From the UHGV virus genome UHGV-1353415: a stretch of 36,357 nt of DNA; one strand, written 5' to 3'. Position 1 is the stretch's first letter. Each line of letters begins with the position of its first letter. The notes beneath the pieces were generated by a model that was given only the letters and a program-made list of their open reading frames with translations, did not search any database and was not told where the DNA came from. This DNA is from a virus. The position numbers and the translations under genes are program-made. Of the stretch, positions 6,311 to 36,357 are shown piece after piece.

Positions 6311-6498
6311 CGTTTAACAGCCTGCCGGACGGGCTGTCCTACCTTCTCAATCCGGTTGACGCCGGGTTAATTCCTTATACAGCACTTAAAGATGGCTCTG
6401 TCGATTTGTACGACATTGCTCTCTTGAATGACCACCTGGCGGTAAAAGCGGATAACCAGCGGCGCATTGAGAAATGGAGAGAGGATAATGAACGCTGA
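6205..6498 (+). CDS. -1 frame extension of tail assembly chaperone (GT-like frameshift product, C-terminal part)
   Basis: -1 frame is open from 6205 to a TGA at 6496..6498; slippery heptamer A AAT TTT at 6256..6262 lies in the chaperone frame; extension ends inside the tape measure start region. Confidence 0.45.
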   Translation, partial: LAGHAASGGAGGRRFAGKFFAYTPYQHDAEPATGLTFNSLPDGLSYLLNPVDAGLIPYTALKDGSVDLYDIALLNDHLAVKADNQRRIEKWREDNER

Positions 6499-8476
6499 AA
6501 CTATTAAAGATTTCCTCGTCTCGCTTGGCTTCAGTGTGGATGATGCAGGAGCGAAAAAGTTCGGTTCTGTCCTCGCCGGTACAACTGCAAATGTCATCAA
6601 AATGGGGCTGGCTGTTGAAGGATCTGCGCTGTCCGTGGTGGCCTTCACGGCTAAGATCGCCTCCGGCCTGGATAATCTTTACTGGGCGTCACAGCGCACC
6701 GGCGCGACAGTCCAGGGAATTCAGTCTATTGGCTATGCGGTTTCGCAGGTTGGCGGCAGCGTGGACGCGGCGCGAACCTCTCTGGAAAGCCTCTCCCGGT
6801 TTGTTCGTAACAATCCCGGCGCGGAAGGCTTCCTGAATCGCCTGGGCGTACAGACCCGTGATGCCAGCGGCAACATGCGCGACATGGCCGCTATCTTTAC
6901 GGGTGTCGGACAGAAGCTCAGCAGCATGCCGTATTACCGGGCTAACCAGTATGCGCAGATGCTTGGCATTGACGAAAATACCCTCATGGCGATGCGCCGG
7001 GGTGTGGGTGATTTCTCCGGGCAGTACAGCGCAATGGCGAAAGCTATCGGCTTCAATGCTGACGAGGCGGCCAGAAGCTCCAACAAATTTATGACCTCCC
7101 TGCGTGAGTTTGGCGCGATGGCAGGCATGGCCCGTGACAAAATCGGCTCTAATCTTGCGGGTGGGCTTGCGGGTTCGCTGGACACTCTGCGCCGCCATAT
7201 CCTGGACAACTTCCCGCGCATCGAGCAGACCCTGACGAAAGCCATAAAAGGCATTCTGGCGCTCGGGGATATTATCGGGCGGCTGTTCTTCAGACTGATT
7301 GAAGGAACATCAGGCCTCATCACCTGGTGGCAATCGCTGGATAAGCAAACGCGGGAGCTCATCTCGCTGTTTGGCGCGCTGACGATTGCGCTGCGCATTC
7401 TGAACAGTACGTTCTGGATGTCGCCGATTGGCCTCATTACCGCGCTGGCGGCGGGGATTGCCCTTCTGTGGGAGGACTATCAGACCTGGAAGGAAGGCGG
7501 CGACAGCCTGATTGACTGGGGCAAGTGGAAGCCGGAGGTCGATGCCGCGCTGAAGATGGTTCGTGACCTGAAAGGGTCTGTTAATGAACTGGCGAAAGCG
7601 CTGGCGAAACTGCTCAATATTGACCCCAAATCATGGTCCCTGAAGTGGGATTTCAGCAACTTCATCGACCAGATGGGCGAATTCAGCAAAATGCTGAACA
7701 TGATCGCCGACCTGCTCAACGCTATCAAAGATGGCCGCTGGGCTGATGCCGTCAGCATCGGCAAACAGATACTTAATCAGGGCAGCGAAAATCCGTCAGC
7801 GATGCCGATGGTTACAGACAGCGCTAACAGTACTGCCGACTGGATTAAAGAGCACTGGGGATTCGATCCCCGCAGTGTGGGCCGGACGGTACGCGGCTGG
7901 TTTGGTGATGATGAGCCGGAACAATATGCACAGGCTACGAAACGAGGAGAACGGAATAACAATCCGGGAAACCTTAATTTTGCTGGTCAGGCAGGGGCTT
8001 CTCTTGAACGCCCGGGCGGGCGATTTGCCAGATTTGAAACTGCTTTTGATGGATTACGGGCTCTTGCTCGTCAGTTAATGCTGTACGCCGGACGGGGAAT
8101 AAACAGTGTGGAGAAAATTATCTCTACCTGGGCACCTGCGTCTGATAATAACAACACAACTGCGTATATCAGGGCTGTATCGCAACGACTGGGAGTGGAT
8201 CCCCGGGCTGCCCTGAATATGAGCGATCCGCAAACCATGTCAGCATTGATGAGCAGCATTATCCAGCATGAAAATGGAAGAAATATCTATTCTCGAGAGC
8301 TGATTAATAAGGCTGCCGTGGCGGGAATTAGTGGCAAAATGACAGAGGTTAACCAGCAAAATACTTACCACATTTACGGTGGCGGAGATCCGCACGCTGT
8401 CGGTAATGAGGTTGCACGTCGGCAACAGTCTGCAAATGCTCAGGTCATGCGAAGTAATCAGGTGAGGGTGGGTTAG
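6488..8476 (+). CDS. tail tape measure protein
   Basis: Long ORF after the chaperone pair; ATG at 6488 preceded by GGAGAGAGGATA (track start 6467 also possible); hydrophobic central segment; Ala/Gly-rich helical N-terminal part. Confidence 0.65.
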   Translation: MNAETIKDFLVSLGFSVDDAGAKKFGSVLAGTTANVIKMGLAVEGSALSVVAFTAKIASGLDNLYWASQRTGATVQGIQSIGYAVSQVGGSVDAARTSLESLSRFVRNNPGAEGFLNRLGVQTRDASGNMRDMAAIFTGVGQKLSSMPYYRANQYAQMLGIDENTLMAMRRGVGDFSGQYSAMAKAIGFNADEAARSSNKFMTSLREFGAMAGMARDKIGSNLAGGLAGSLDTLRRHILDNFPRIEQTLTKAIKGILALGDIIGRLFFRLIEGTSGLITWWQSLDKQTRELISLFGALTIALRILNSTFWMSPIGLITALAAGIALLWEDYQTWKEGGDSLIDWGKWKPEVDAALKMVRDLKGSVNELAKALAKLLNIDPKSWSLKWDFSNFIDQMGEFSKMLNMIADLLNAIKDGRWADAVSIGKQILNQGSENPSAMPMVTDSANSTADWIKEHWGFDPRSVGRTVRGWFGDDEPEQYAQATKRGERNNNPGNLNFAGQAGASLERPGGRFARFETAFDGLRALARQLMLYAGRGINSVEKIISTWAPASDNNNTTAYIRAVSQRLGVDPRAALNMSDPQTMSALMSSIIQHENGRNIYSRELINKAAVAGISGKMTEVNQQNTYHIYGGGDPHAVGNEVARRQQSANAQVMRSNQVRVG

Positions 8477-9063
8477 TGGATATTCTCTCTACACTTTTTC
8501 ATCAGCAGAGCAGAAAAATAGGAATGATTGTTCCCAGTGTTGTTATTTCAGAGAAGCATACAGATATGCTTGAAATAACAGAGCATCCGGTAGAGGTTGG
8601 GGCCGCTGTCGCTGATCATGCCTATAAAAAACCGTCAGAAGTGGTGATGGAGGTTGGTTTCGCCGGTGGCGGCGCATTGCTGGATTTTGCCAGTAATCTG
8701 ACGGCTACCAGCCTGCTCGGCCTGAGTCCTCAGCAGACGTATCAGGAGCTACTGGATCTGCAGGAAAGCCGTATCCCCTTCGATGTGGTAACCGGTAAAC
8801 GACTGTACAGCAACATGTTGATCCGGGCGCTGGAAGTGACGACGGACAAGACAACCGAAAACGTCCTGTCCGCCGTCCTCACCCTGAGGGAGGTCCTTAT
8901 CTCCCGGACACAGCAGATCACCGTCGCGGATAAAACCAACATGAAGGAAGGGGCCAGCACGTCGGCGCTACAGAACAGCGGCAACAAAACCACAAAGCCT
9001 CCAGATACTTCACTGCTGAAAAGCATCACTGGTAACGTGGCGTCATTACTGGGAGGCGGCTAA
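8476..9063 (+). CDS. tail/baseplate protein (hypothetical)
   Basis: 195-aa ORF, GTG start overlapping the tape measure stop. Confidence 0.4.
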   Translation: MDILSTLFHQQSRKIGMIVPSVVISEKHTDMLEITEHPVEVGAAVADHAYKKPSEVVMEVGFAGGGALLDFASNLTATSLLGLSPQQTYQELLDLQESRIPFDVVTGKRLYSNMLIRALEVTTDKTTENVLSAVLTLREVLISRTQQITVADKTNMKEGASTSALQNSGNKTTKPPDTSLLKSITGNVASLLGGG

Positions 9064-9365
9064 TGACTATTCAGGAAATTCCGCTGACAGCGGACAACCA
9101 GCAGTTCAGCATCGTCCTGGGTGGTGTCACTTGGCAGATTAGCATCATATGGCGCGATCCTTACTGGATTATGGACCTGCAGAACGACAGAGGGGAGCCG
9201 GTAATCTCCGGTATTCCTCTCGTCACTGGCGCTGATCTGCTGGCGCAGTACGCCTGTATGGGGCTTGGTTTTAAGCTGGTGGTGGTCTGCGATGACAACA
9301 CACAGGATTATCCCTCGAAAACTGATCTGGGTGGCCGCAGTCATTTACTGGTATCAACGGAGTAA
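9063..9365 (+). CDS. tail/baseplate protein (hypothetical)
   Basis: 100-aa ORF overlapping the upstream stop (ATGA). Confidence 0.4.
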   Translation: MTIQEIPLTADNQQFSIVLGGVTWQISIIWRDPYWIMDLQNDRGEPVISGIPLVTGADLLAQYACMGLGFKLVVVCDDNTQDYPSKTDLGGRSHLLVSTE

Positions 9366-9367
9366 GC

Positions 9368-10432
9368 ATGTCACAGAACTGGATGAGACATTTCGAGCTG
9401 CAGCTTGTGGACGGGAACGGTCAGGGAATTGAGCTAAGTGATTTCAAAGTCACCTTTACGATCGACTGGTTCAACATCAGCAGCGCGTCCCGGGTAGGGA
9501 CTATCAAAATTTATAACCTCTTGGCAGATACTGTGAACCGAATCACCGGGAAGGAATTTTCGAAAGTGCGGCTGATTGCCGGTTACGACGGTATCGCGCC
9601 GGAGGTGGCGGCAAGCGACGTCGGGACCGTGCGCGAAGTCGACGCGGCAGATGTGGGCCAGAGTGATGGCCGCAACTACGGGCTGATTTTCAGCGGAGAA
9701 ATTCGCTACTCGGTCACAGGAAAAGACAGCCCTATTGATTCCTATGTCCTGATTCAGGCAGCAGATACGGATCTGGCATTTGCCACCAGTATAACCTCAC
9801 AGACGCTGGCTGCCGGTTACACGGTCGCTGATGTGAACCGTGCGCTGATGAAAGACTTCGAAGCCAAAGGCGCGACCGAAGGCCTGACGCCTGAAATGCC
9901 TGCTACTGTATTCCCCCGGGGGCGGGTGCTCTTTGGCATGACGCGGCATCTTATGGATAACGTAGCCGGGCAATGTGGCGCAACATGGCAATTCGTGGAC
10001 GGTCAACGCCAGATGGTGGCGAATAACGAATATGTTCATGAAGCGATTGTGCTCAACAGCGCCACCGGGCTTATCGGCATGCCGCAGCAGACTATCGGCA
10101 ACGGCGTAAACGTCCGCGCGCTTATTAATCCGAACATCCGGGTTAATGGGCTCATTCAACTGGATCAGGCTTCCGTATATCGCACCGCGTTGTCGAACAA
10201 CGATATTGCGATGGCTGGTGGGCAGATCACCGACCAGAACACGGACGGAAATATCACGCTAAGCGGCACCACAGCACAACCTGCCAGCATCGCAACGGAT
10301 GGCGTTTATATTGTGCGCGGGATTATGTACACTGGCGATACAAGGGGCCAGGCGTGGTACATGGATATGATGTGCGAAGCGCGTGGCGCGGCGGATCTTG
10401 TTTCCTCATCAGCGAGGGAAAGAGGGCTTTAA
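9368..10432 (+). CDS. baseplate hub-like protein
   Basis: 354-aa ORF between tape measure and spike-like gene; size and position fit a hub protein. Confidence 0.45.
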   Translation: MSQNWMRHFELQLVDGNGQGIELSDFKVTFTIDWFNISSASRVGTIKIYNLLADTVNRITGKEFSKVRLIAGYDGIAPEVAASDVGTVREVDAADVGQSDGRNYGLIFSGEIRYSVTGKDSPIDSYVLIQAADTDLAFATSITSQTLAAGYTVADVNRALMKDFEAKGATEGLTPEMPATVFPRGRVLFGMTRHLMDNVAGQCGATWQFVDGQRQMVANNEYVHEAIVLNSATGLIGMPQQTIGNGVNVRALINPNIRVNGLIQLDQASVYRTALSNNDIAMAGGQITDQNTDGNITLSGTTAQPASIATDGVYIVRGIMYTGDTRGQAWYMDMMCEARGAADLVSSSARERGL

Positions 10433-10764
10433 TGAAACGGTTATGTTTGGCGTTAGTTATGATGGTTACTGCTCCGGCGATGGCTGCAATTCAGTGCGGC
10501 AACTACACGATGACCGGTGACGGAATGACTGTTATTAACGGTGAAACTGTCACATCACAGAAGATAAAATTTCTGGGAAAAGATGGTGACTATTCAAACA
10601 TAAAAATGGACATGGGCCTGATGCCTTCCCGTGATGGTAACAATTACGGCTTTGAGTTTGTGAAACGTAACGGAAAAGCTTTCCTGAATGTCCAACTGCT
10701 GCAGAACAGCATGGATGCGCCGAAAATCATCGGCTCCTTCCCGTGTAAAAAGGTTGATGGTTAA
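10432..10764 (+). CDS. small secreted protein with N-terminal signal peptide (accessory)
   Basis: ATG overlaps the hub stop (TAATG); MKRLCLALVMMVTAPAMA then AIQC looks like a Sec signal peptide with AXA site; about 110 aa. Confidence 0.5.
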   Translation: MKRLCLALVMMVTAPAMAAIQCGNYTMTGDGMTVINGETVTSQKIKFLGKDGDYSNIKMDMGLMPSRDGNNYGFEFVKRNGKAFLNVQLLQNSMDAPKIIGSFPCKKVDG

Positions 10765-10932
10765 CCAAAAGTTACATTTCTGCATAGTGTTGAGTTTGTT
10801 CACATTCACTAAATAATGATTTTTTATCGCTTGCTAGGTGGTTGCATGATCACTAAACTTTGCGAACTTTTAGCGCTCAGCTAACTTTGAATAAGTGGTG
10901 TATAGTCGTTTAAAACGACAGAGGGATTGGGT
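10765..10932 (+). promoter_or_regulatory. AT-rich intergenic region with TATAGT -10-like element (10901..10906) and 15-bp perfect palindrome GTCGTTTAAAACGAC (10905..10919); putative autoregulated promoter/operator
   Basis: Palindrome and -10-like hexamer read directly; only non-coding gap over 100 bp inside the tail gene block; -35 element not confidently placed. Confidence 0.35.
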
Positions 10933-11505
10933 ATGGCGATTAGCTACGCATTTGCGCTGGCAACAATTACACAACAAATGAATCAGGTTCAGGAAGCTGT
11001 TAACGGTGCTTTCAAACCCCTGATCTCTAATGCTTGTGAACTGCCACAACGATTAGATGCTGAAGAGGTATTTCGTCGTTGTACCGCGATTGCTGCACGC
11101 GCTCAAGAAATCGAAAATACCGCGAAGGAAGGCATGTCTCATCTCGAAGCTTTTCGAAATGGGAGAATCATTGTTGATGAGCTTCCGGAAGAGTTTTTAT
11201 CCCATCTCGAAGGTCTTGCCAAGGCATGCCGAAATGCTAAAGGACATTTAGTGGATATGTTCTCTGAAGCGGAAAGGTCCCCTATGTGGCAAGGCCATCT
11301 GCAAATGTTGCGCCCATTAAAACGCAAATATGTTCGTGCGTTGACCGCCGTCGAGAACACTGCAACTCAGTTGGCCGCTGAAGTTAGGCAATCGCAGCCT
11401 TTCCAGGCTGAACTCTTGTCAGATAATGTTACCCGTGAAGAGGCTATTGAACTGATCTCAACATCGCATAAGATGCTGGGAGCCAACGCCCCTAAATGGA
11501 TGTGA
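10933..11505 (+). CDS. hypothetical protein, putative antitoxin/partner of the downstream YafO-like gene
   Basis: ATG at 10933 with SD GAGGGA 6 nt upstream (track start 10927 is TTG); about 190 aa, no recognised motif; stop 1 nt before the next gene's ATG. Confidence 0.55.
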   Translation: MAISYAFALATITQQMNQVQEAVNGAFKPLISNACELPQRLDAEEVFRRCTAIAARAQEIENTAKEGMSHLEAFRNGRIIVDELPEEFLSHLEGLAKACRNAKGHLVDMFSEAERSPMWQGHLQMLRPLKRKYVRALTAVENTATQLAAEVRQSQPFQAELLSDNVTREEAIELISTSHKMLGANAPKWM

Positions 11506-11506
11506 C

Positions 11507-11923
11507 ATGGCAAAAGTCAGTATCACGGGAGAATTGCGTCATTTAGCTGCAGCACATAAGTATGCTCAAATGCTTGCCGATTATATTTCAAAGGGTTCCC
11601 AGTTCTGGTGTTTTGGTTCGTTAGGCGGTTTTGAACGTAACTATGATGCGATGGCTGCCAACATCAGGAAAATTCACTTAAAGCTACCTGGCGATAAACC
11701 CTGGCCTCCAGAAGCATCTCTGAGTGAACGGACATGTGATAATTTTTTGGTATATGCTCAGCATCTTTATATCGATGAACACTATCAGATATTGGCAATC
11801 ATCAGCCCAAACGCTCATCAGCAAGCTGATTCGATGCTTCCCCGGCTGATAAAATTAGCAGAGGAAACCTTCATAGAACTTCCTCCTGATGAACTCGAAA
11901 AATTGAAAACCTACGATTCATAA
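11507..11923 (+). CDS. YafO-family toxin-like protein (putative ribosome-dependent mRNA interferase)
   Basis: 138 aa; blocks IHLKLPGDKPWPPE, SERTCDNFLVYAQ, QILAIISPNAH and LAEETF match the pattern I recall for E. coli YafO (IHLANENNPFPPQ, SRTNDEAHLVYCQ, LLIAILKPEPH, MAEAF). Confidence 0.5.
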   Translation: MAKVSITGELRHLAAAHKYAQMLADYISKGSQFWCFGSLGGFERNYDAMAANIRKIHLKLPGDKPWPPEASLSERTCDNFLVYAQHLYIDEHYQILAIISPNAHQQADSMLPRLIKLAEETFIELPPDELEKLKTYDS

Positions 11924-11924
11924 A

Positions 11925-11948
11925 CCCGCCACCCGGCGGGTTTTTTGC
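11925..11948 (+). terminator. Rho-independent terminator after the two-gene cassette
   Basis: CCCGCC-ACCC-GGCGGG hairpin followed by TTTTTT. Confidence 0.6.
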
Positions 11949-11965
11949 TTTCTGGAGCCTACTAA

Positions 11966-12721
11966 ATGGCAGTATCTGACCAGACCCGCAGCGGCGACCT
12001 TGCCGAAACATTCAAATCTGAACGGGAAACAACAAAGAACCAGATCCGTGTCGCCTTGCCTGGCATTGTTCAGTCATTCGATCCCGACGCGGTGACGGCG
12101 GTTGTGCAGCCAGCTATCCGTTCGGTTGAAAAGGATAACGACGGTAACCGCATTACCAAAAATTACCCGTTGCTGGTGGATGTGCCAGTGGTATTTCCGC
12201 GCGGTGGAGGCTGTACGTTGACTTTTCCGGTTAAAGCCGGGGATGAATGCCTGGTGATTTTCGCCGACCGCTGCATCGATTTCTGGTGGCAGAACGGCGG
12301 GGTGCAGGAGCCTGTCGACGACCGGGTGCATGATTTATCGGATGCTTTCTGTATCGTCGGGCCGCAGTCTCAGGCGCAGAAAATAAGCGGAATAAGCACC
12401 AGTGGCGCGCAGCTGCGTACTGATGATGGCGCTGCGTTTGTGGAAGTGGCCGCAGGCCATAATATCACGGTTAAAACTCCCGGCGCGTTGACGGCGACAG
12501 CAGAAGGAGGAACCACGATCACATCACCCACCATCACGCTAAACGGCAACGTGACAATAAACGGGAATCTCTCTCAGGGGATGGGCGAAAGCGGCGGCAC
12601 CGCGACGATGCTTGGCCCTGTCACGGTGACTAACGATGTAAAAGCTGGTGGTAAGAGCCTGATGACGCACACGCACGGCGGAGTACAGACCGGCGGCGGT
12701 AACACAGGAGCGCCTAACTGA
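11966..12721 (+). CDS. baseplate central spike protein (gpV/gp45-like)
   Basis: 251 aa with Gly/Thr-rich C-terminus and HTHGGVQTGGGNT-type motif; RBS CTGGAGCC..AAATGG. Confidence 0.5.
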   Translation: MAVSDQTRSGDLAETFKSERETTKNQIRVALPGIVQSFDPDAVTAVVQPAIRSVEKDNDGNRITKNYPLLVDVPVVFPRGGGCTLTFPVKAGDECLVIFADRCIDFWWQNGGVQEPVDDRVHDLSDAFCIVGPQSQAQKISGISTSGAQLRTDDGAAFVEVAAGHNITVKTPGALTATAEGGTTITSPTITLNGNVTINGNLSQGMGESGGTATMLGPVTVTNDVKAGGKSLMTHTHGGVQTGGGNTGAPN

Positions 12722-13074
12722 TGCGATACAGACGTGAAGACGCCGATGGCGATTATACCTTTGGCAGCGGTGATGACACCTGGCTGATTAACTCACCGGA
12801 GGCCGTGGCGCAGGCGGTAAAAACGCGATTCGAATTGTGGTATGGGCAATGGTTTCTCGATACCACCGAAGGGACTCCGTGGATCCAGTCCGTACTCGGT
12901 AAGCAGAAGCCGGAAACCTACAACCTGGCGATCCGTAAGCGCATCCTCGAAACGCGGGGCGTTAAATCAATCCTCTCTTTCAATACGACGGTGGATACCA
13001 CGACCCGACGTGTCATGTTTTCCGCTGAAATCGACACTCTTTATGGAATAACGACTGTTACATCGGAGGCGTAA
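12721..13074 (+). CDS. baseplate protein (gp25/W-like position)
   Basis: 117-aa ORF with ATGA overlap, between spike and J-like genes. Confidence 0.4.
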   Translation: MRYRREDADGDYTFGSGDDTWLINSPEAVAQAVKTRFELWYGQWFLDTTEGTPWIQSVLGKQKPETYNLAIRKRILETRGVKSILSFNTTVDTTTRRVMFSAEIDTLYGITTVTSEA

Positions 13075-14273
13075 TGGCTCTGAACCTTGATTCTCTTGGT
13101 TTATCTGCAAAGGTAACCGCAGAGGGGATCAGTGCGCCTGATTATCAGACGATACTCAGCACCCTGATTAGCTATTTTCAGCAGATTTATGGCAGTGATG
13201 CCTACCTCGAACCGGACAGCAAAGACGGCCAGATGGTGGCTTTGATGGCGCTGGCGATTCATGATGCCAATAATATGGCGATAACTGTCTACAACTGTTT
13301 TTCACCGGCAACCGGCTATGGGGCTGCACTGACCAGCAACGTGAAAATAAATGGTATTTCACGTAAAGGCGCGACGAACTCTACGGTTGATTTGCTTCTT
13401 ACAGGAACTGCCGGAACAACCATCATTAATGGCAGCGTGAAAGACAGTAATAATGTGATATGGCGTTTGCCTGCTTCAGTGGTGGTCGGCGTGGATGGTA
13501 CAGTGATGGCGACCGCAAAATGTTCCGTCAGTGGTGCAGTGGCGGCGCTGGCTGGAACTATCACTGAAATTAATACGCCAACCCGTGGCTGGGTTTCGGT
13601 AACTAATCCTGCTGCGGCTACTGTTGGCTCTCCGGCAGAAACTGATGCTGAGTTACGTATCCGCCAGTCGCAAAGTGTTGCGTTGCCATCAATAACCCCA
13701 TTTGAAGCACTGGATGGTGCTGTTTCTAATGTTACCGGTGTAACCCGCCACAAACTCTATGAAAACGATACTGGTTCGGAGGACGGTAACGGGTTACCGC
13801 CACACTCTGTTGCTGTAATTGTGGATGGCGGTGATGTGACGGATATTGCTCAGGCTATCAGAGGGAATAAAGGCCAGGGGACAGCCACTCACGGTACAAC
13901 ATCCGTTACGGTTCCGGATAAATACGGCAATCCCCATGTAATCAAATTCTCGCGTTCCAGTGATGTACCTGTTTATGCCCGGATTAAATTAAAAGTTTTT
14001 ACGGGTTATACCTCACAGATAGGGCAGCAGATCCAGCAGGCTATTTCCGACTATATCAATAGTCTGACGATTGGTGATTCGGTCCTTTTGAGTCGCATTT
14101 ACTCACCGGCGAATCTTGGCGTGGTGAGTGGCGGGAATGCACGCTATTACGATATTCAGGAACTGACGATTGGGAAATCCCCGGGGGCTTTGTCGTCATC
14201 AAACATTGATATCAGATACAACGAATCTGCGTCCTGTACCCCGGAAAATATCGTTATAACGGTGGAGTCATGA
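13074..14273 (+). CDS. baseplate J-like protein
   Basis: 399-aa ORF in conserved position after the spike and small baseplate protein. Confidence 0.5.
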   Translation: MALNLDSLGLSAKVTAEGISAPDYQTILSTLISYFQQIYGSDAYLEPDSKDGQMVALMALAIHDANNMAITVYNCFSPATGYGAALTSNVKINGISRKGATNSTVDLLLTGTAGTTIINGSVKDSNNVIWRLPASVVVGVDGTVMATAKCSVSGAVAALAGTITEINTPTRGWVSVTNPAAATVGSPAETDAELRIRQSQSVALPSITPFEALDGAVSNVTGVTRHKLYENDTGSEDGNGLPPHSVAVIVDGGDVTDIAQAIRGNKGQGTATHGTTSVTVPDKYGNPHVIKFSRSSDVPVYARIKLKVFTGYTSQIGQQIQQAISDYINSLTIGDSVLLSRIYSPANLGVVSGGNARYYDIQELTIGKSPGALSSSNIDIRYNESASCTPENIVITVES

Positions 14274-16114: not shown

Positions 16115-16474
16115 ATTTTAACTAATTGTTTTTAAACTGTTTTTTTCATTGCGGGTTTTTCAATGTATAAGTAAGTTAAGCAACTTATCATTGCACAAAT
16201 TGATAAAGATATTGCTGCAAACGCAGTATAGTTTAATGAGCTTGAAATGAAATTAAAGGTCATTACCATGCTTAAGCCATGCATCAAATAAATGCTGTAA
16301 CTTACAGAACCCGCCACCTTGAAGAACTTGGTGTTTATAATTTGAAAAGCTTTGGAGCCAGTACACGCACTTAAAAAAAACAAAAATAGCGGAATCACTA
16401 TGTAAACATTGTAAATGTTAAAGTCCTGCCAGTATGCAACAGCAATAAGCGATAAAAGGGGTAATGACTCCAAC

Positions 16475-16978
16475 TTACTGATAGTGTTTTATGTTCAGAT
16501 AATGCCCGATGACCTTGTCATGCAGCTCCACCGATTTTGAGAACGACAGTGACTTCCGTCCCAGCCTTGCCAGATGTTGTCTCAGATTCAGGTTATGCCG
16601 CTCAATTCGCTGAGTGTAACGCTTGCTGATTACGTGCAGCTTTCCCTTCAGGCGGGATTCATACAGCGGCCAGCCATCCGTCATCCATACCACGACCTCA
16701 AAGGCCGACAGCAGGCTTAGAAGACGCTCCAGTGTGGCCAGAGTGCGTTCACCGAATACGTGCGCAACAACCGTCTTCCGGAGCCTGTCATACGCGTAAA
16801 ACAGCCAGCGCTGGCGCGATTTAGCCCCGACGTATCCCCACTGTTCGTCCATTTCCGCGCAGACGATGACGTCACTGCCCGGCTGTATGCGCGAGGTTAC
16901 CGACTGCGGCCTGAGTTTTTTAAATGGCGGAAAATCGTGTTGAGGCCAACGCCCATAATGCGGGCGGTTGCCCGGCAT
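16475..16978 (-). CDS. insB: IS1 InsB (transposase frame, expressed as InsAB' by frameshift)
   Basis: 167-aa product ..[44 protein letters not shown].. matches IS1 InsB. Confidence 0.85.
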
Positions 16979-17172
16979 CCAACGCCATTCATGGCCATAT
17001 CAATGATTTTCTGGTGCGTACCGGGTTGAGAAGCGGTGTAAGTGAACTGCAGTTGCCATGTTTTACGGCAGTGAGAGCAGAGATAGCGCTGATGTCCGGC
17101 GGTGCTTTTGCCGTTACGCACCACCCCGTCAGTAGCTGAACAGGAGGGACAGCTGATAGAAACAGAAGCCAC
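16897..17172 (-). CDS. insA: IS1 InsA
   Basis: 91-aa product [43 protein letters not shown].. matches IS1 InsA. Confidence 0.9.
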
Positions 17173-18327
17173 TGGAGCACCTCAAAAACACCATCATACA
17201 CTAAATCAGTAAGTTGGCAGCATCACCATAAAAGGTACACAATTGTCATCATTACGCTATTGGCTTGTTTGATAGCGTTGTTCTTTAGGTAACCAGAAGC
17301 TAGCGCTGCAACAAAGCCACCAATAAAGCAAAAGAGAAGAGTGGCAAACATTTCACTGATAAGCCCTTGGCGGTAAGCAATTAATACCGAGAAAAGCATA
17401 ATTATTACCGAAAAACATGCATCTCTTATTGATTTTACGAACATAGAGATATATGGTAAAATTATATAAAAACCCCACTCATATGCAAGAGTCCAGATAA
17501 CCCCGCCAACGATTAAAGATCCATGAATAGAAGGTGTAAGGCCATTAGGGTCAATTATACCAAACGTAAAATATCGGCCAACTTCAACAATAATGTTGTG
17601 AATCCCAATGCTATCGTTGGGTCGAATTAATTCAGAAACACAAACAACGCAAAGCACCATGAATGCATACATTGGAATTAGTCTCTTAACTCGCGCCGAC
17701 AAAAATATTGCAGCATTGTTTATTGGTTTATTTATTATTTTTCTAAAGAAGAGAAACCCTGTAATCATAAAGAATATCATGACTGGAATGGAGCCAAAAT
17801 ATGCAATAGCCAATAAACTATTGTTGCTTGACTTCGCCGTAAATCCATCATTCAAAAATATACTCCATTTATCATGATAAAGATAATTGAACATATATAC
17901 TGAATGGTGAAGGGCGACCATGACAGCCGCCAACCCCCTGAGGCAAGATAAATTGTCATCACCTCGCAACCCAAAAGAAGAGTCTGCAACTAATTCATTC
18001 TTAAACCTTCCGGCAATCCAAAAAACAAAAAATACAGGGATGGAAGATAAAATAAAGATAATAAACGTCAAGTCAAACATAAAAACGCTCACGACCATTA
18101 GGGATTATATAATATCCTGATGTTAAATCATTTAAAGCTATACTTCATTACATTTATATAAAAACGGTAATGGAAAAGATGGTATGAAAATTTCCGCTTT
18201 AAAAACAATTGGATATAATTCTTTCTGTTCTCGTGTTAATCCTATCAAAAAAATGGGATGGGTGCATCATCAACGATGCGCGTGCAGGTTAGTTTGATGA
18301 CTACCCGCTGAAGTGAAAATTGTGTTG

Positions 18328-18629: not shown

Positions 18630-19808
18630 ATGGCTATAAGCGACACAAAACTGCGTACTATTTATGGTAAACCATATTCGGGCCCACAAGAAGTGGCTGA
18701 TGCCGATGGCCTCAGCGTACGAATTTCACCGAAGGGGGTCATCCAGTTCCAGTACCGCTATCGCTGGCATGGCAAGCCTAATCGACTTGGGCTTGGTCGA
18801 TACCCATCCCTGTCTTTGAAGGATGCCAGACAGATCACTGCTGACTTGCGAAAGCTCTATTTCTCAGGAACGGATCCACGCACTTATTTTGAAGAGAAGG
18901 TGGAGAACTCCATGACGGTCGCCCAGTGTCTCGACTACTGGTTCGACAACTACGTCTCTACAACTCTCAGAGAAAAGACCCAGGCACTTTACCGATCAAC
19001 GGTTATGAAGCGCATGTATGACGCCTTCCCTAATCGTCCGGCATCTTCTATCACGGTTAAGCAATGGGTTGACCTGCTTACCGAAGAAGAAAGAGATAAT
19101 CCACGCCGAGCAAGGCAGGTGCTAAGTCAACTAAGATCAGCAATAAGTTGGTGCATGCGGCGTCAGTTGATAGATAGTTGCGCAATTATGAGCATCCAAC
19201 CAAGGGACTTCGGCTCCCGCGCTGAGGTAGGGGAGCGGGTACTGTCGTATCACGAACTGGCTAAGATTTGGCTTGCTATTGAAAGAAGCCGTGCGTCTAC
19301 GTCAAATAAGCTCCTTCATCAGATGCTTATGCTGTGGGGGTCGAGGCTCTCAGAGCTTAGGCTGGCAACAAAGACAGAATTTGACCTGCTGGACAACGTA
19401 TGGACCGTACCGAAAGAGCATAGCAAGATGGGTAATGTTATCCGCCGTCCAATCTTCGAACAAATTAAGCCTTTTCTCGAAAAGGCCATGACAACGTACA
19501 ATGATGTTCTTTTCCCTGGAGAAGACATAAACAAACCGATCAGCATCGCTGCAGCCAACCGATTCGTAAATAGAATAAGGGGAGGGATGGACATAGGTTA
19601 CTGGCGAACACATGATTTCAGAAGAACGCTTGTTACACGGCTGTCCGAGATGAATGTCGAGCCCCATGTTACTGAGCGAATGCTCGGTCATGAACTTGGC
19701 GGGATAATGTCCGTGTACAATAAACACGACTGGATAGAGGCTCAGCGCAAAGCGTATGAGCTTCACGCTGATAAATTGTTCTGGCACATCAGGAACATTT
19801 CTGGTTAA
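18630..19808 (+). CDS. int: tyrosine integrase (P4-type, with N-terminal arm-binding domain)
   Basis: 392 aa; catalytic-type motifs ..HDFRRT.. and ..LGHELGGIMSVYNKHD.. near the C-terminus; N-terminal ..LSVRISPKGVIQFQYRYRW.. arm-binding fold signature. Confidence 0.85.
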   Translation: MAISDTKLRTIYGKPYSGPQEVADADGLSVRISPKGVIQFQYRYRWHGKPNRLGLGRYPSLSLKDARQITADLRKLYFSGTDPRTYFEEKVENSMTVAQCLDYWFDNYVSTTLREKTQALYRSTVMKRMYDAFPNRPASSITVKQWVDLLTEEERDNPRRARQVLSQLRSAISWCMRRQLIDSCAIMSIQPRDFGSRAEVGERVLSYHELAKIWLAIERSRASTSNKLLHQMLMLWGSRLSELRLATKTEFDLLDNVWTVPKEHSKMGNVIRRPIFEQIKPFLEKAMTTYNDVLFPGEDINKPISIAAANRFVNRIRGGMDIGYWRTHDFRRTLVTRLSEMNVEPHVTERMLGHELGGIMSVYNKHDWIEAQRKAYELHADKLFWHIRNISG

Positions 19809-32058: not shown

Positions 32059-32469
32059 ATGAAGCAAACAATCTTCCTCCGAACTAAGCAACAACAGCAA
32101 GCCGCAATCAACGCCATCCTCGCAACACCACTCGATAAAGACAAGCCAGTCACCATCCGCATTACTGACTACAAGCGCAACCTTGACCAGAACGCAAAAT
32201 TTCACGCGATGCTGGCGGATATCGCTAGGCAAGTTCAGTGGCGCGATAAATGGTTAAAACCAGAACAATGGAAGGTTTTGTTGATCAGCGGTCATGCAGT
32301 GGCAACAAAGCAGGAAGCTGATGTTTTGCCCGGGCTTGAAGGCGAATACGTCAACATTCGCGAAAGCAGCGCGCAGATGAGTGTGAAGCGTATGGCAAGT
32401 CTGATTGAGTACACAACAGCCTGGGCTATTGGTCAGGGTGTCAGATTTACCGACAGGAGGTACGAATGA
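32059..32469 (+). CDS. ninB: NinB recombination protein
   Basis: MKQTIFLRT.. with ..[33 protein letters not shown].. resembling lambda NinB (..RSLDQNRKLWACLGDVSRQVEWHGRWLDAESWK..). Confidence 0.7.
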
Positions 32470-32642
32470 GGCGACAGCGACGAAGTTTCACCGACATCAT
32501 CTGCGAAAACTGCAAATACCTTCCAACGAAACGCTCCAGAAATAAACGCAAGCCAATCCCAAAAGAATCTGACGTAAAAACCTTCAACTACACGGCTCAC
32601 CTGTGGGATATCCGGTGGCTAAGACATCGTGCGAGGAAATGA
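32466..32642 (+). CDS. ninD: NinD-like small protein
   Basis: 58-aa [30 protein letters not shown].. with ATGA overlaps on both sides; not in the ORF track (below length cut-off). Confidence 0.45.
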
Positions 32643-33028
32643 CAATGGATTATTCACAGTTAAGTGATTTTGAAATTAACGTGGCGGTATTCGAAGCCAT
32701 TCATAACGGATCACCGGATTACAAAGAAGGTGAGAATGGCGCGATGGTGTTTATCTCATTTGAGGGAGACATTGTAAACGGAGACGCAGTTGAAGTAGAG
32801 GTTGAGCGCGGATCCTTTAACCCATGCGCAAACCCAGCAGACGCATGGCCGATTATCACTGAAAACAACATCAGCATAATTTTAGACAATCCCTCAATGC
32901 CGTGCGCTACAGACAACGCAAGGGACTTATTTGATGATGCCGGACCGAATGTTGGTGTCGCATATGACAATCCACTCCGTGCCGCCATGATTGTCTTTCT
33001 CATGATGCAGGACGCCAATAATGCTTAG
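32639..33028 (+). CDS. hypothetical nin-region protein
   Basis: ATG overlapping the upstream stop (track start 32603); acidic 129-aa product. Confidence 0.45.
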
Positions 33029-33197
33029 CCCATCCCAATCCCTTCAATACCAGAAAGAAAGCGTCGAGCGGGCTTTAACGTGCGCTAACTGCGGTCAGAA
33101 GCTGCATGTGCTGGAAGTTCACATGTGTGAGCACTGCTGCGCAGAACTGATGAGCGATCCGAATAGCTCGATGCACGAGGAAGAAGACGATGGCTAA
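33021..33197 (+). CDS. ninF: NinF-like protein
   Basis: 58 aa [40 protein letters not shown].. matches my recollection of lambda NinF; not in the ORF track. Confidence 0.6.
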
Positions 33198-33801
33198 ACC
33201 AGCGCGAAGACGATGTAAAAACGATGAATGTCGGGAATGGTTTCACCCTGCATTCGCTAATCAGTGGTGGTGCTCTCCAGAGTGTGGAACCAAGATAGCA
33301 CTCGAACGACGAAGCAAAGAACGCGAAAAAGCGGAAAAGGCAGCAGAGAAGAAACGACGACGAGAGGAGCAGAAACAGAAAGATAAACTTAAGATTCGAA
33401 AACTCGCCTTAAAGCCCCGCAGTTACTGGATTAAACAAGCCCAACAAGCCGTAAACGCCTTCATCAGAGAAAGAGACCGCGACTTACCATGTATCTCGTG
33501 CGGAACGCTCACGTCTGCTCAGTGGGATGCCGGGCATTACCGGACAACTGCTGCGGCACCTCAACTCCGATTTGATGAACGCAATATTCACAAGCAATGC
33601 GTGGTGTGCAACCAGCACAAAAGCGGAAATCTCGTTCCGTATCGCGTCGAACTGATTAGCCGCATCGGGCAGGAAGCAGTAGACGAAATCGAATCAAACC
33701 ATAACCGCCATCGCTGGACTATCGAAGAGTGCAAGGCGATCAAGGCAGAGTACCAACAGAAACTCAAAGACCTACGAAATAGCAGAAGTGAGGCCGCATG
33801 A
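33190..33801 (+). CDS. ninG: NinG / Rap recombination endonuclease
   Basis: 203 aa with Cys clusters ([24 protein letters not shown]) as in lambda NinG. Confidence 0.8.
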
Positions 33802-34004
33802 CGTTCTCAGTAAAAACCATTCCAGACATGCTCGTTGAAGCATACGGAAACCAGACAGAAGTAGCACGCAGACTGAAATGTAGTCGCGGTACGGTCAGAA
33901 AATACGTTGATGATAAAGACGGGAAAATGCACGCCATCGTCAACGACGTTCTCATGGTTCATCGCGGATGGAGTGAAAGAGATGCGCTATTACGAAAAAA
34001 TTGA
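33798..34004 (+). CDS. ninH: NinH
   Basis: 68 aa [37 protein letters not shown].. HTH protein, lambda NinH-like. Confidence 0.7.
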
Positions 34005-34647
34005 TGGCAGCAAATACCGAAATATTTTGGTAGTTGGCGATCTGCACGGATGCTACACGAACCTGATGAAAAAACTGGAGACGATAGGATTCGACACCAA
34101 AAAAGACCTGCTTATCTCAGTGGGCGATTTGGTTGATCGCGGTACAGAGAACGTCGAATGCCTGGAATTAATCACATTCCCCTGGTTCAGAGCTGTACGT
34201 GGAAACCATGAGCAAATGATGATTGATGGCTTATCAGAGCGTGGAAACGTTAATCACTGGCTGCTTAATGGCGGTGGCTGGTTCTTTAATCTCGATTACG
34301 ACAAAGAAATTCTGGCTAAAGCTCTTGCCCATAAAGCAGATGAACTTCCGTTAATCATCGAACTGGTGAGCAAAGATAAAAAATATGTCATTTGCCACGC
34401 CGATTATCCTTGTGACGAATACGAGTTTGGAAAGCCAGTTGATCATCAGCAGGCAATCTGGAACCGCGAACGAATCAGCAACTCACAAGACGGGATCGTG
34501 AAAGAAATCAAAGGCGCGGACACGTTCATCTTTGGTCATACGCCAGCAGTGAAACCACTCAAGTTTGCCAACCAGATGTATATCGATACCGGCGCAGTGT
34601 TCTGCGGAAACCTCACATTGATTCAGGTACAGGGAGAAGGCGCATGA
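33982..34647 (+). CDS. serine/threonine protein phosphatase (lambda PPase-like, NinI)
   Basis: [23 protein letters not shown]...GDLVDRG...GNHE calcineurin-like metallophosphatase motifs; start at internal ATG 33982. Confidence 0.85.
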
Positions 34648-35267
34648 GACTCGAAAGCGTAGCTAAATTTCATTCGCCAAAAAGCCCGATGATGAGCGAC
34701 TCACCACGGGCCACGGCTTCTGACTCTCTTTCCGGTACTGATGTGATGGCTGCTATGGGGATGGCGCAATCACAAGCCGGATTCGGTATGACTGCATTCT
34801 GCGGTAAGCACGAACTCAGCCAGAACGACAAACAAAAGGCTATCAACTATCTGATGCAATTTGCACACAAGGTATCGGGGAAATACCGTGGCGTTGCAAA
34901 GCTTGAAGGAAATACTAAGGCAAAGGTATTGCAAGTGCTCGCAACATTCGCTTATGCGGATTATTGCCGTAGTGCCGCGACGCCGGGCGCAAGATGCAGA
35001 GATTGCCACGGTACAGGTCGTGCGGTTGATATAGCAAAAACAGAGCAGTGGGGGAGAGTTGTTGAGAAAGAGTGCGGAAGATGCAAAGGCGTCGGCTATT
35101 CAAGAATGCCAGCAAGCGCCGCATATCGCGCTGTAACGATGCTAATCCCAAACCTTACCCAACCCACCTGGTCACGCACTGTTAAGCCGCTGTATGACGC
35201 TCTGGTGGTGCAATGCCACAAGGAAGAGTCAATCGCAGACAATATTTTGAATGCGGTCACACGTTAG
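34644..35267 (+). CDS. Q: late-gene antiterminator Q
   Basis: 207 aa [27 protein letters not shown].. with [14 protein letters not shown] zinc motif; closely matches my recollection of lambda Q. Confidence 0.85.
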
Positions 35268-35309
35268 CAGCATGATTGCCACGGATGGCAACATATTAAC
35301 GGCATGATA

Positions 35310-35338
35310 TTGACTTTTTGAATAAAGTTGGGTAAATT
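35310..35338 (+). promoter_or_regulatory. pR' late promoter (with qut region downstream)
   Basis: TTGACT, 17 nt, TAAATT; context TTGACTTTTTGAATAAAGTTGGGTAAATTTGACCCAACGATGGG matches the lambda pR' region as I recall it. Confidence 0.6.
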
Positions 35339-35478
35339 TGACCCAACGATGGGTTAATTCGCTCGTTGTGGTAGTGAGATAAAAAGAGGCGGCGCTTACT
35401 ACCGATTCCGCCTAGTTGGTCACTTCGACGTATCGTCTGGAACTCCAACCATCGCAGGCTGAGAGGTCTGCAAATGCA

Positions 35479-35537
35479 ATCCCGAAACAGTTCGCAGGTA
35501 ATAGTTAGAGCCTGCATAACGGTTTCGGGATTTTTTA
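35479..35537 (+). terminator. tR' terminator (end of the short 6S-type late leader transcript)
   Basis: Long hairpin ATCCCGAAAC...GTTTCGGGAT followed by TTTTTTAT. Confidence 0.6.
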
Positions 35538-35540
35538 TTT

Positions 35541-35615
35541 GGGTCAGTCGTATAAAGGTCATTACGGAAGGCTGTTAACCTTCTTATCGTGGTTCGAGTC
35601 CACGCTGTCCCGCCA
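35541..35615 (+). tRNA. tRNA-like gene, anticodon GUU (Asn-like), imperfect acceptor and D stems
   Basis: Hand-folded cloverleaf: anticodon arm GAAGG-CTGTTAA-CCTTC, T arm CGTGG-TTCGAGT-CCACG, 3' CCA present; one acceptor mismatch. Confidence 0.45.
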
Positions 35616-35620
35616 AACAT

Positions 35621-35696
35621 GCTGGTTTAGCTCTAATGGTAGAGCAGTCGCCTTGTAAGCGAATGGGTAGCGGTTCAAGTCCGTTAACCAGCACCA
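35621..35696 (+). tRNA. tRNA, anticodon UGU (Thr-like)
   Basis: Hand-folded: acceptor GCTGGTT/AACCAGC, D arm GCTC-TAATGGTA-GAGC, anticodon loop CTTGTAA, T arm AGCGG-TTCAAGT-CCGTT, discriminator A, CCA. Confidence 0.6.
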
Positions 35697-35940
35697 TAAC
35701 TGAGCCGTAGCCACTGGCTATATCCTGAATTCATCAGTGATAGTTACGCTGCGGCCTTCTACACATGATCTTCGTGAAAGCGGGTGGCAGGAGGTCGCGC
35801 TAACAACCTCCTGCTGTTTTGCCCGTGCATATCGGTCACGAACAAATCTGATTACTAAACACAGTAGCCTGGATTTGTTCTATCAGTAATCGACCTTATT
35901 CCTAATTAAATAGAGCAAATCCCCTTATTGGGGGTAAGAC

Positions 35941-36264
35941 ATGAAGATGCCAGAAAAACATGACCTGTTAGCCGCCATTCTCGCGGCAAAGGAACAAGGC
36001 ATCGGGGCAATCCTTGCGTTTGCAATGGCGTACCTTCGCGGAAGATATAATGGCGGTGCGTTTACAAAAACAGTAATCGACGCAACGATGTGCGCCATTA
36101 TCGCCTGGTTCATTCGTGACCTTCTCGACTTCGCCGGATTAAGTAGCAATCTCGCTTATATAACGAGCGTGTTCATCGGCTACATCGGTACTGACTCGAT
36201 TGGTTCGCTTATCAAACGCTTCGCTACTAAAAAAGCCGGAGTAGAAGATGGTGGAAATCAATAA
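35941..36264 (+). CDS. S: holin S (class I, dual-start)
   Basis: 107 aa [20 protein letters not shown].. closely matches my recollection of lambda S; Met1-Lys2-Met3 dual start. Confidence 0.85.
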
Positions 36265-36357
36265 TCAACGTAAGGCGTTCCTCGATATGCTGGCGTGGTC
36301 AGAGGGAACTGATAACGGACGTCAGAAAACCAGAAATCATGGTTATGACGTCATTGT
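36248..36357 (+). CDS. R: endolysin R (lytic transglycosylase), 3'-truncated by window edge
   Basis: [36 protein letters not shown].. matches the lambda R N-terminus; start overlaps the end of S. Confidence 0.8.

Follow-up and report, generated by a model that had tools for sequence, protein, structure and literature searches.

A small exported protein encoded beside the baseplate hub gene of SEN34-like temperate phages: a predicted periplasmic barrel with a possible envelope-protective role

The UHGV virus genome UHGV-1353415 (36,357 nucleotides; its whole length is called the window here) carries a 110-codon gene, hereafter gene X, between the baseplate hub and central spike genes of its contractile-tail module. 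Judged from sequence, the product is very probably periplasmic and not a structural part of the virion. We strongly infer that in Enterobacterales X belongs, as a fixed accessory gene, to the tail module of SEN34-like (Brunovirus-like) temperate myophages. The best explanation of all the observations taken together, an exported non-virion accessory protein with an envelope-protective role, may well be right, though we place it somewhat short of an even chance. Among classes of function superinfection exclusion appears the most plausible, and a protective or exclusion role as such is put forward tentatively.

Gene X and its coupling to the hub gene

By its sequence features, translation of X is coupled to that of the hub gene, as the first-pass annotation of the window had held. 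The hub stop codon (TAA 10430-10432) and the X start codon share one nucleotide (TAATG), and a Shine-Dalgarno-like element lies within the hub coding sequence. The GGGAAAGAGGG motif also stands at the hub/X junction of related loci. Exactly the X coding sequence was annotated by the Prokaryotic Genome Annotation Pipeline (PGAP; WP_095186740.1) in an E. coli prophage whose sequence matches the window at 100% identity over 9300-12100. No promoter-like site on the + strand was found upstream of X within 9300-10432, where the promoter scan was not above shuffled expectation. The G+C content of X is 44.4%, against 54.7% for the hub gene and 56.5% for the spike gene. The features of the junction and of X itself are as follows.

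9368-10432, + strand: baseplate hub gene, 354 aa (phrog_196, E=2e-87; PF22759 E217_GP41, weak at E=1e-4; NF047561)
10421-10426, + strand: Shine-Dalgarno-like AGAGGG for X, read from the sequence, within the hub coding sequence and 5 nt before the X ATG
10432-10764, + strand: gene X, 110-aa precursor of an exported-protein candidate (phrog_3443 family; ATG 10432-10434, TAA 10762-10764, 110 codons)
10432-10485, + strand: predicted X signal peptide, residues 1-18 (MKRLCLALVMMVTAPAMA), from rule-based features and family-wide architecture; predicted signal peptidase I cut after AMA
10486-10761, + strand: X mature domain, 92 aa, a predicted eight-stranded up-and-down beta-barrel

The order hub, X, variable cargo of 0-4 kb and spike recurs in about 125 loci. 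In a first set of 45 loci, taken from phage records and GTDB genomes and all enterobacterial except for one record labelled Chryseobacterium, hub, X and spike follow one another in nearly every case; departures are confined to contig edges, to a few loci with an insertion between hub and X, and to tail genes too diverged to match. In a set of 80 IMG/VR loci the hub lies directly upstream of X in 79, and the spike lies downstream in all 74 loci with enough flank. The overlap between hub stop and X start is conserved as well, measuring 1 nt in 48 and 4 nt in 18 of the IMG/VR loci (66/79 together), and either such an overlap (-1 or -4 nt) or a gap of a few nucleotides is present in nearly all loci. 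One lineage (L137 5001-5330) carries an X-like gene between plug and hub instead, and its hub then abuts the spike.

A cleavable signal peptide

The proposal that X starts with a cleavable Sec-type signal is borne out by the three-part (n/h/c) features of its N-terminus, MKRLCLALVMMVTAPAMA followed by AIQC. Lys2 and Arg3 give the n-region a net charge of +2. The h-region, LCLALVMMVTAP, is a 12-residue hydrophobic core with a 10-residue Kyte-Doolittle mean of 2.72, compared with a family median of 2.62. A cleavage-type site of the AXA form, AMA^AIQ, follows residue 18, and across the family an equivalent site lies 3-9 residues ahead of an invariant cysteine. The same architecture, with a net charge of at least +1, is kept in 142 of the 147 full-length relatives. 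The call is thus one of rule-based features and family conservation and not a dedicated predictor score. A lipobox ([LVI][ASTVI][GAS]C) is absent from X, where Ala-Ile-Gln precedes Cys22, and the pattern is matched by just 2/147 relatives.

The signal region evolves differently from the rest of the protein. Mean identity within the family is 28% in the signal region, 59% in the first half of the mature protein and 83% in the second half, and the pooled ratios of nonsynonymous to synonymous substitution rates (dN/dS) are 0.32 for the signal and 0.06 and 0.02 for the two mature halves. A signal whose shape is kept while its sequence is free to drift is the signature of a segment that is cleaved off, and the hydrophobic stretch is too short to serve as a stable transmembrane anchor. 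A 292-aa relative (P0144; L048 8001-8879, also L049 and L050) occupies the same hub-adjacent slot and matches phrog_3443. It begins with a lipoprotein signal (LSGC), continues with a domain of about 170 aa that found no match in searches, and ends with the X barrel. This lipoprotein-signal variant in the same slot again places the X family in the envelope. We regard it as very probable that X is exported by the Sec machinery and cut by signal peptidase I after Ala18, the mature protein of about 10 kDa being released as a soluble periplasmic beta-barrel with a predicted eight strands.

The mature domain

Two cysteines, Cys22 (10495-10497) and Cys105 (10744-10746), are invariant in the X family, even in relatives at 23-30% identity. 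They lie on the first and the last strand of the modelled barrel and probably form a disulfide that staples it. The position of the pair, one member just after the cleavage site and the other near the C-terminus, fits a disulfide formed in the periplasm. The model of full-length X was poor; the confident model is that of the mature domain alone, which from an alignment including distant relatives reached a predicted local distance difference test (pLDDT) of 90.5 and a predicted template modelling (pTM) score of 0.79, and is all beta with seven to eight strands. Between phages the N-terminal half of the mature protein is mosaic and the C-terminal half is nearly invariant.

Fold comparison gave weak similarity to the lysozyme inhibitor PliC, to PhiA and to BtaiB, and avidins outscore every inhibitor; X has no sequence membership in the avidin family. 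A Foldseek comparison of the model with BFVD returned nothing significant, and a sequence search of the PDB with the X family profile gave nothing below E=0.2. Pfam run on X and on 82 family members, with the MliC/PliC model included, had no match even at E up to 5.

An accessory gene and not a baseplate component

The baseplate of Pam3 is built of six proteins, none of them X-like (PMC11633184), and that of phiTE of nine proteins, likewise with none resembling X (PMC11972413). All of the Pam3 and phiTE baseplate proteins are matched by genes of the window other than X. In Acinetobacter A785.1, Salmonella BP63 and Edwardsiella ZHS, which carry distant versions of the module, hub and spike are adjacent and X is missing. 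Among phage records hub homologs occur in 136 and X in 20. The homologous baseplates of Pam3, phiTE, BP63 and A785.1 therefore argue that X is not structural, in keeping with the expectation that it would not be a baseplate component. Its absence from relatives, its position ahead of the hub in one lineage and its lower G+C content together point to an accessory gene that has become fixed in one enterobacterial temperate lineage.

It is very unlikely that X is a structural or assembly protein of the baseplate whose hydrophobic N-terminus is not a signal. Its place between hub and spike, its coupling to the hub gene and its strong conservation would suit such a part, whereas the cleavable-signal architecture with a drifting sequence, the invariant cysteine pair, the lipoprotein-anchored variant, the completeness of homologous baseplates that lack X and the existence of stand-alone chromosomal copies would not. 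The literature search found no virion proteome of SEN34-like phages. The first-pass annotation had regarded a protein of this kind as not expected among baseplate genes; it was right as to the non-structural nature of X, and has to be amended in that X is a fixed and strongly conserved member of the baseplate operon in this lineage.

Family, distribution and constraint

X matches phrog_3443 at E=2.9e-53, with residues 3-109 aligned on positions 6-114 of the 115 in the profile, and distant relatives match the same family. It is thus a family already catalogued, without an assigned function, structure or localisation. PGAP labels the window's own X 'hypothetical' and NCBIfam release 20 has no match for it; the PGAP name 'STY1065/STY2022 family phage-derived protein' belongs to a 113-aa homolog that sits in the same slot and differs in its N-terminal half. 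A profile search of a set of 5.8 billion proteins recovered close relatives only, and a search of 50% representatives reached further. The homologous protein clusters number 412 to 530, and all are from Enterobacterales where the source organism is named. The gene is found on 370 IMG/VR contigs and its region in 317 of 5,426 complete E. coli genomes; further X-bearing prophages are those of Salmonella (including Typhi), Klebsiella, Yersinia, Photorhabdus, Serratia and Pantoea. A literature search by locus tags, accessions and SEN34 returned no functional data on the family, which none of the papers in the library searched mentions.

Two records carry labels from outside this order. One labelled Chryseobacterium sp. 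18061 (L007, CACSKA010000001.1) has the same enterobacterial tail module at 86-94% protein identity, and one labelled Elizabethkingia phage EKP1 (OM284015.1) has the same module at 47% protein identity. These labels may reflect contamination or mislabelling.

The overall dN/dS of X is 0.06, which indicates strong purifying selection. Between the E. coli phage and Photorhabdus prophages its C-terminal half reaches 87% identity, compared with 42-70% for the Dit, plug, hub, spike and J proteins, so that this half is more conserved than any tail protein. That X is more conserved than the virion encoded around it is most simply explained by a conserved partner in the host.

The sequence type of X, in the relatives compared, tracks none of the hub, the spike tip, the fibre, the lysin domain of the tape measure or the cargo. 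The types are told apart in the N-terminal half of the mature protein, of which there are several versions. A given type is combined with different fibres, spike tips and C-terminal domains of the tape measure, and is shared by phages of different host genera. Independence from fibre, spike tip and lysin argues against both receptor masking and the inhibition of a specific lysin.

Copies outside functional phages

X is retained where the tail module has decayed or is absent. A degraded prophage of Phytobacter diazotrophicus (L146 4111-7033) has only fragments of the hub (295 aa) and the sheath initiator (46 aa), yet its 114-aa X is intact and two cargo genes remain. Divergent stand-alone members occur in chromosomes with no tail genes within 5-6 kb (L141 6001-6327, L138 6001-6402, L143 6001-6339 and L135 5001-5342). 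Their contexts are the interval between yciY and yciI-tonB, a site after fliE, one near tsx and one beside a lipoprotein gene; the last lies 1.4 kb upstream of a gene for Hcp, a type VI secretion system protein. X also occurs in arrays. Serratia aquatilis (L029 5440-10328) has seven tandem paralogs between hub and spike, one of which is frameshifted, with an insertion sequence (IS)-type transposase gene among them. In Pseudescherichia vulneris (L039 629-2849) there are four copies, likewise between hub and spike, and a duplicated 3′ fragment of the hub (1596-1889) precedes the third. Promoter scans of the Serratia array and of one chromosomal copy were not above shuffled expectation. Copies in dead prophages and at bare chromosomal sites, together with the arrays, suggest that X can be of use to the cell apart from the making of virions.

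Proposed function and its alternatives

We tentatively propose that X binds a conserved component of the cell envelope, and not a component of its own virion, and that it may protect the envelope of the cell carrying or producing the phage against penetration from outside. Exclusion would act at a periplasmic step, through a block of peptidoglycan digestion, of tail-tube passage or of DNA entry, rather than through masking of a surface receptor.

Several points weigh against such a protective function. No link between X and any function, by experiment or by homology, was found, and scans with Pfam, NCBIfam and PADLOC assign it to no family; the fold match is generic. With no promoter-like site of its own, deep in a Q-dependent late operon, X is expected to be made late in lytic growth only, and a lysogen would not express it, barring transcription that escaped detection. 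For an exclusion factor such timing is late, the gene of T4 Spackle being an early one (PMC7677548). Among X proteins of a single sequence type no diversifying selection is seen (dN/dS 0.06), unlike in many arms-race proteins. The arrays are rare, with 3 among the roughly 125 loci, and may be recombination debris, given that an IS element or duplicated hub fragments adjoin them. Finally, the signal peptide was scored by rules and not by a dedicated predictor.

Three other readings are each rather unlikely, to about the same degree, and the first two are the main rivals. In the first, X is a late helper of phage release, binding a conserved envelope component (peptidoglycan, an outer-membrane tether, or a periplasmic enzyme or protease are the candidate targets) so as to tune lysis or to limit the loss of progeny on debris. 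The late operon, the missing promoter and the coupling to the hub gene are what such a factor would show, and the conservation of the C-terminal half across genera suggests a conserved host target. On the other side, genes for a holin, a GH24 endolysin and an Rz1-like spanin are already present in the prophage copy, and virulent or distant relatives that share the baseplate manage without X. Nor would a lysis helper readily account for the persistence of X in degraded prophages and at bare chromosomal sites.

The second main rival holds that X is a conversion factor for the fitness of the host, which would act in the periplasm to inhibit foreign cell-wall hydrolases (animal lysozyme or type VI effectors, for example) and would be comparable with PliC/MliC or with type VI immunity proteins. 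A small periplasmic beta-barrel weakly similar in fold to PliC, PhiA and BtaiB would suit this role. So would the stand-alone chromosomal copies, including the one near the Hcp gene, and the tandem arrays recall arrays of immunity genes. Of the three, PhiA is a Brucella protein and BtaiB a type VI immunity protein; the weak similarity is one of fold, and X has no Pfam match.

The third is a speculative extension of the exclusion idea. X might represent a new class of phage periplasmic 'immunity-like' proteins, linked to the hub in temperate myophages, that would block the passage of the tail tube, the tape measure or the DNA by way of a conserved periplasmic or inner-membrane entry factor of the host. 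The mosaic N-terminal half would set specificity, and bacteria would have domesticated copies as an envelope defence; if so, the stand-alone genes, the arrays and the retention in dead prophages would be such domesticated copies. This reading parallels the linkage of VgrG, effector and immunity genes in type VI secretion systems.

That X specifically inhibits the tail lysin of its own phage, as a Spackle-like means of self-exclusion, is improbable. A target of this kind exists in the window, where the C-terminus of the tape measure (about 7940-8335) is a muramidase-like domain that Pfam does not detect. Its homologues are the solved endolysin chain 7q47 (E=1e-13) and, with E=1.6e-20, the N-terminus of chain 9vvp_L, which bears the name Gp29. 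The chain 7q47 is presumably the phage endolysin Pae87. The Spackle precedent speaks for such an inhibitor (PMC7677548). The domain is, however, exchanged among relatives while X stays unchanged: matches are strong in some loci and weak or missing in others, and the tape measure of L048 has an SLT domain. Conversely, the relative L046 shares both the lysin domain and the cargo of the window and carries a different X type. The co-occurrence test gave no support and the reading was set aside.

Masking of a receptor from the periplasmic side, in the manner of T5 Llp or Cor, is less probable still and deserves little weight. It had been among the first candidates, and a small exported phage protein with a disulfide in the tail module would resemble these factors (PMC9586334). 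The lack of a lipobox, and hence of the Llp/Cor-like lipid anchor, the absence of a fibre gene beside X, and the occurrence of one X type with different fibres, spike tips, lysins and host genera all speak against it.

The cargo slot between X and the spike gene

The interval downstream of X holds the following features in the window.

10765-11965, + strand: variable cargo slot between X and spike
10790-10817, + strand: promoter-like site of the cassette, from a promoter scan (scans not above shuffled expectation)
10927-11505, + strand: 192-aa open reading frame (phrog_35514, no Pfam family)
11507-11923, + strand: YafO-family toxin-like open reading frame (PF13957, E=4e-17), 1-nt spacing after the 192-aa frame
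11922-11943, + strand: strong terminator hairpin at the 3′ end of the cassette
11966-12721, + strand: central spike gene, a conserved neighbour, with N-terminal spike domain and GpV apex motif (PF18352, E=1.4e-43; PF18946)

Across relatives the interval ranges from about 20 nt to 4.1 kb, and some 38 loci contain 82 open reading frames in 35 unrelated clusters. These include a membrane-anchored Mrr-type (Mrr_cat) nuclease, a T5orf172 protein, a Phd/Doc pair and exported proteins. In several phages X abuts the spike with no cargo at all. The pair found in the window occurs in only about 8 loci and recurs in Shimwellia, Rosenbergiella and Photorhabdus. On these sequences SEN34-like prophages appear to have a hotspot here, so far undescribed, for genes of defence-like and toxin-antitoxin type. 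As a separate observation, the 192-aa partner upstream of the YafO-like toxin is far larger than the usual YafN antitoxin.

The suggestion that X is a periplasmic partner of this cassette, which adjacency in this window alone favours, has almost no chance of being correct, since X is constant while the cassette is interchangeable (one of at least 35 cargo types, found in about 8 loci, with some phages free of cargo) and has a promoter-like site and a terminator of its own.

The phage genome

The window (1-36357) is the circularly permuted genome of a temperate E. coli phage and not a prophage with host flanks, as judged by blastn against an integrated E. coli copy, by Pfam and by annotation. 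It combines lambdoid early, replication and lysis genes with the SEN34-like (Brunovirus-like) contractile-tail module. Pfam matches include an integrase, an S24 repressor, replication protein O, a DnaB-like helicase and a lambda-type holin. The end of the tail module adjoins the integrase gene (18630-19808) and the early region, and the last 4 kb (32388-36357) match the nin-Q-tRNA-holin segment, which in the integrated copy is found upstream of the head genes. The remaining tail genes near X are listed here.

6467-8476: tape measure
8476-9063: Dit-like tube initiator
9063-9365: Pam3-gp18-like plug
12721-13074: sheath initiator
13074-14273: baseplate J

Elsewhere in the window an Acyl_transf_3 gene (16118-18098, - strand), coding for a probable surface-polysaccharide acyltransferase, is split by a 768-bp IS1 at 16460-17227 (InsA 16897-17172, InsB 16475-16978). 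The gene is intact in the integrated E. coli copy.

Significance and comparison with known systems

The X family is common and very strongly constrained, and the present evidence places it, as a sequence-based prediction with a confident model of its fold, in the periplasm. Directly downstream of X, before the spike gene, a cargo hotspot with defence-like and toxin-antitoxin genes has been mapped. If X does block entry by way of a conserved host factor, it would expose the poorly understood step in which contractile-tail phages cross the periplasm, and it would be a portable exclusion determinant of relevance to host-range failures in phage therapy. To our knowledge Spackle, Llp, Cor and Sim are among the few phage tools known to act in the periplasm, and very few such families have been characterised.

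Like the morons of phage tail operons, X is an accessory gene of lower G+C content inserted between structural genes. In contrast to them it has no promoter or terminator of its own, is coupled to the hub gene and is fixed, and the true moron slot lies immediately downstream. Profile searches of Pfam, PHROG and PDB gave no sequence match of X to Spackle, Llp or Cor. Llp of phage T5 and Cor are small exported lipoproteins with a terminal disulfide, encoded in the tail gene region, that exclude superinfecting phage (PMC9586334). They are lipid-anchored, receptor-specific and encoded beside the gene of the receptor-binding protein, whereas X is hub-adjacent, independent of the fibre and devoid of a lipobox. 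Spackle (gp61.3) of phage T4 is a small protein that loses its periplasmic localisation signal by cleavage, contains one disulfide and acts from the periplasm against incoming tails (PMC7677548). X shares with it the small size, the cleaved signal as predicted here and, probably, the disulfide. The two differ in that Spackle is an alpha-helical bundle, the product of an early gene and an inhibitor of the gp5 lysozyme, whereas X is a predicted beta-barrel encoded in a late operon and shows no co-variation with the tail lysin.

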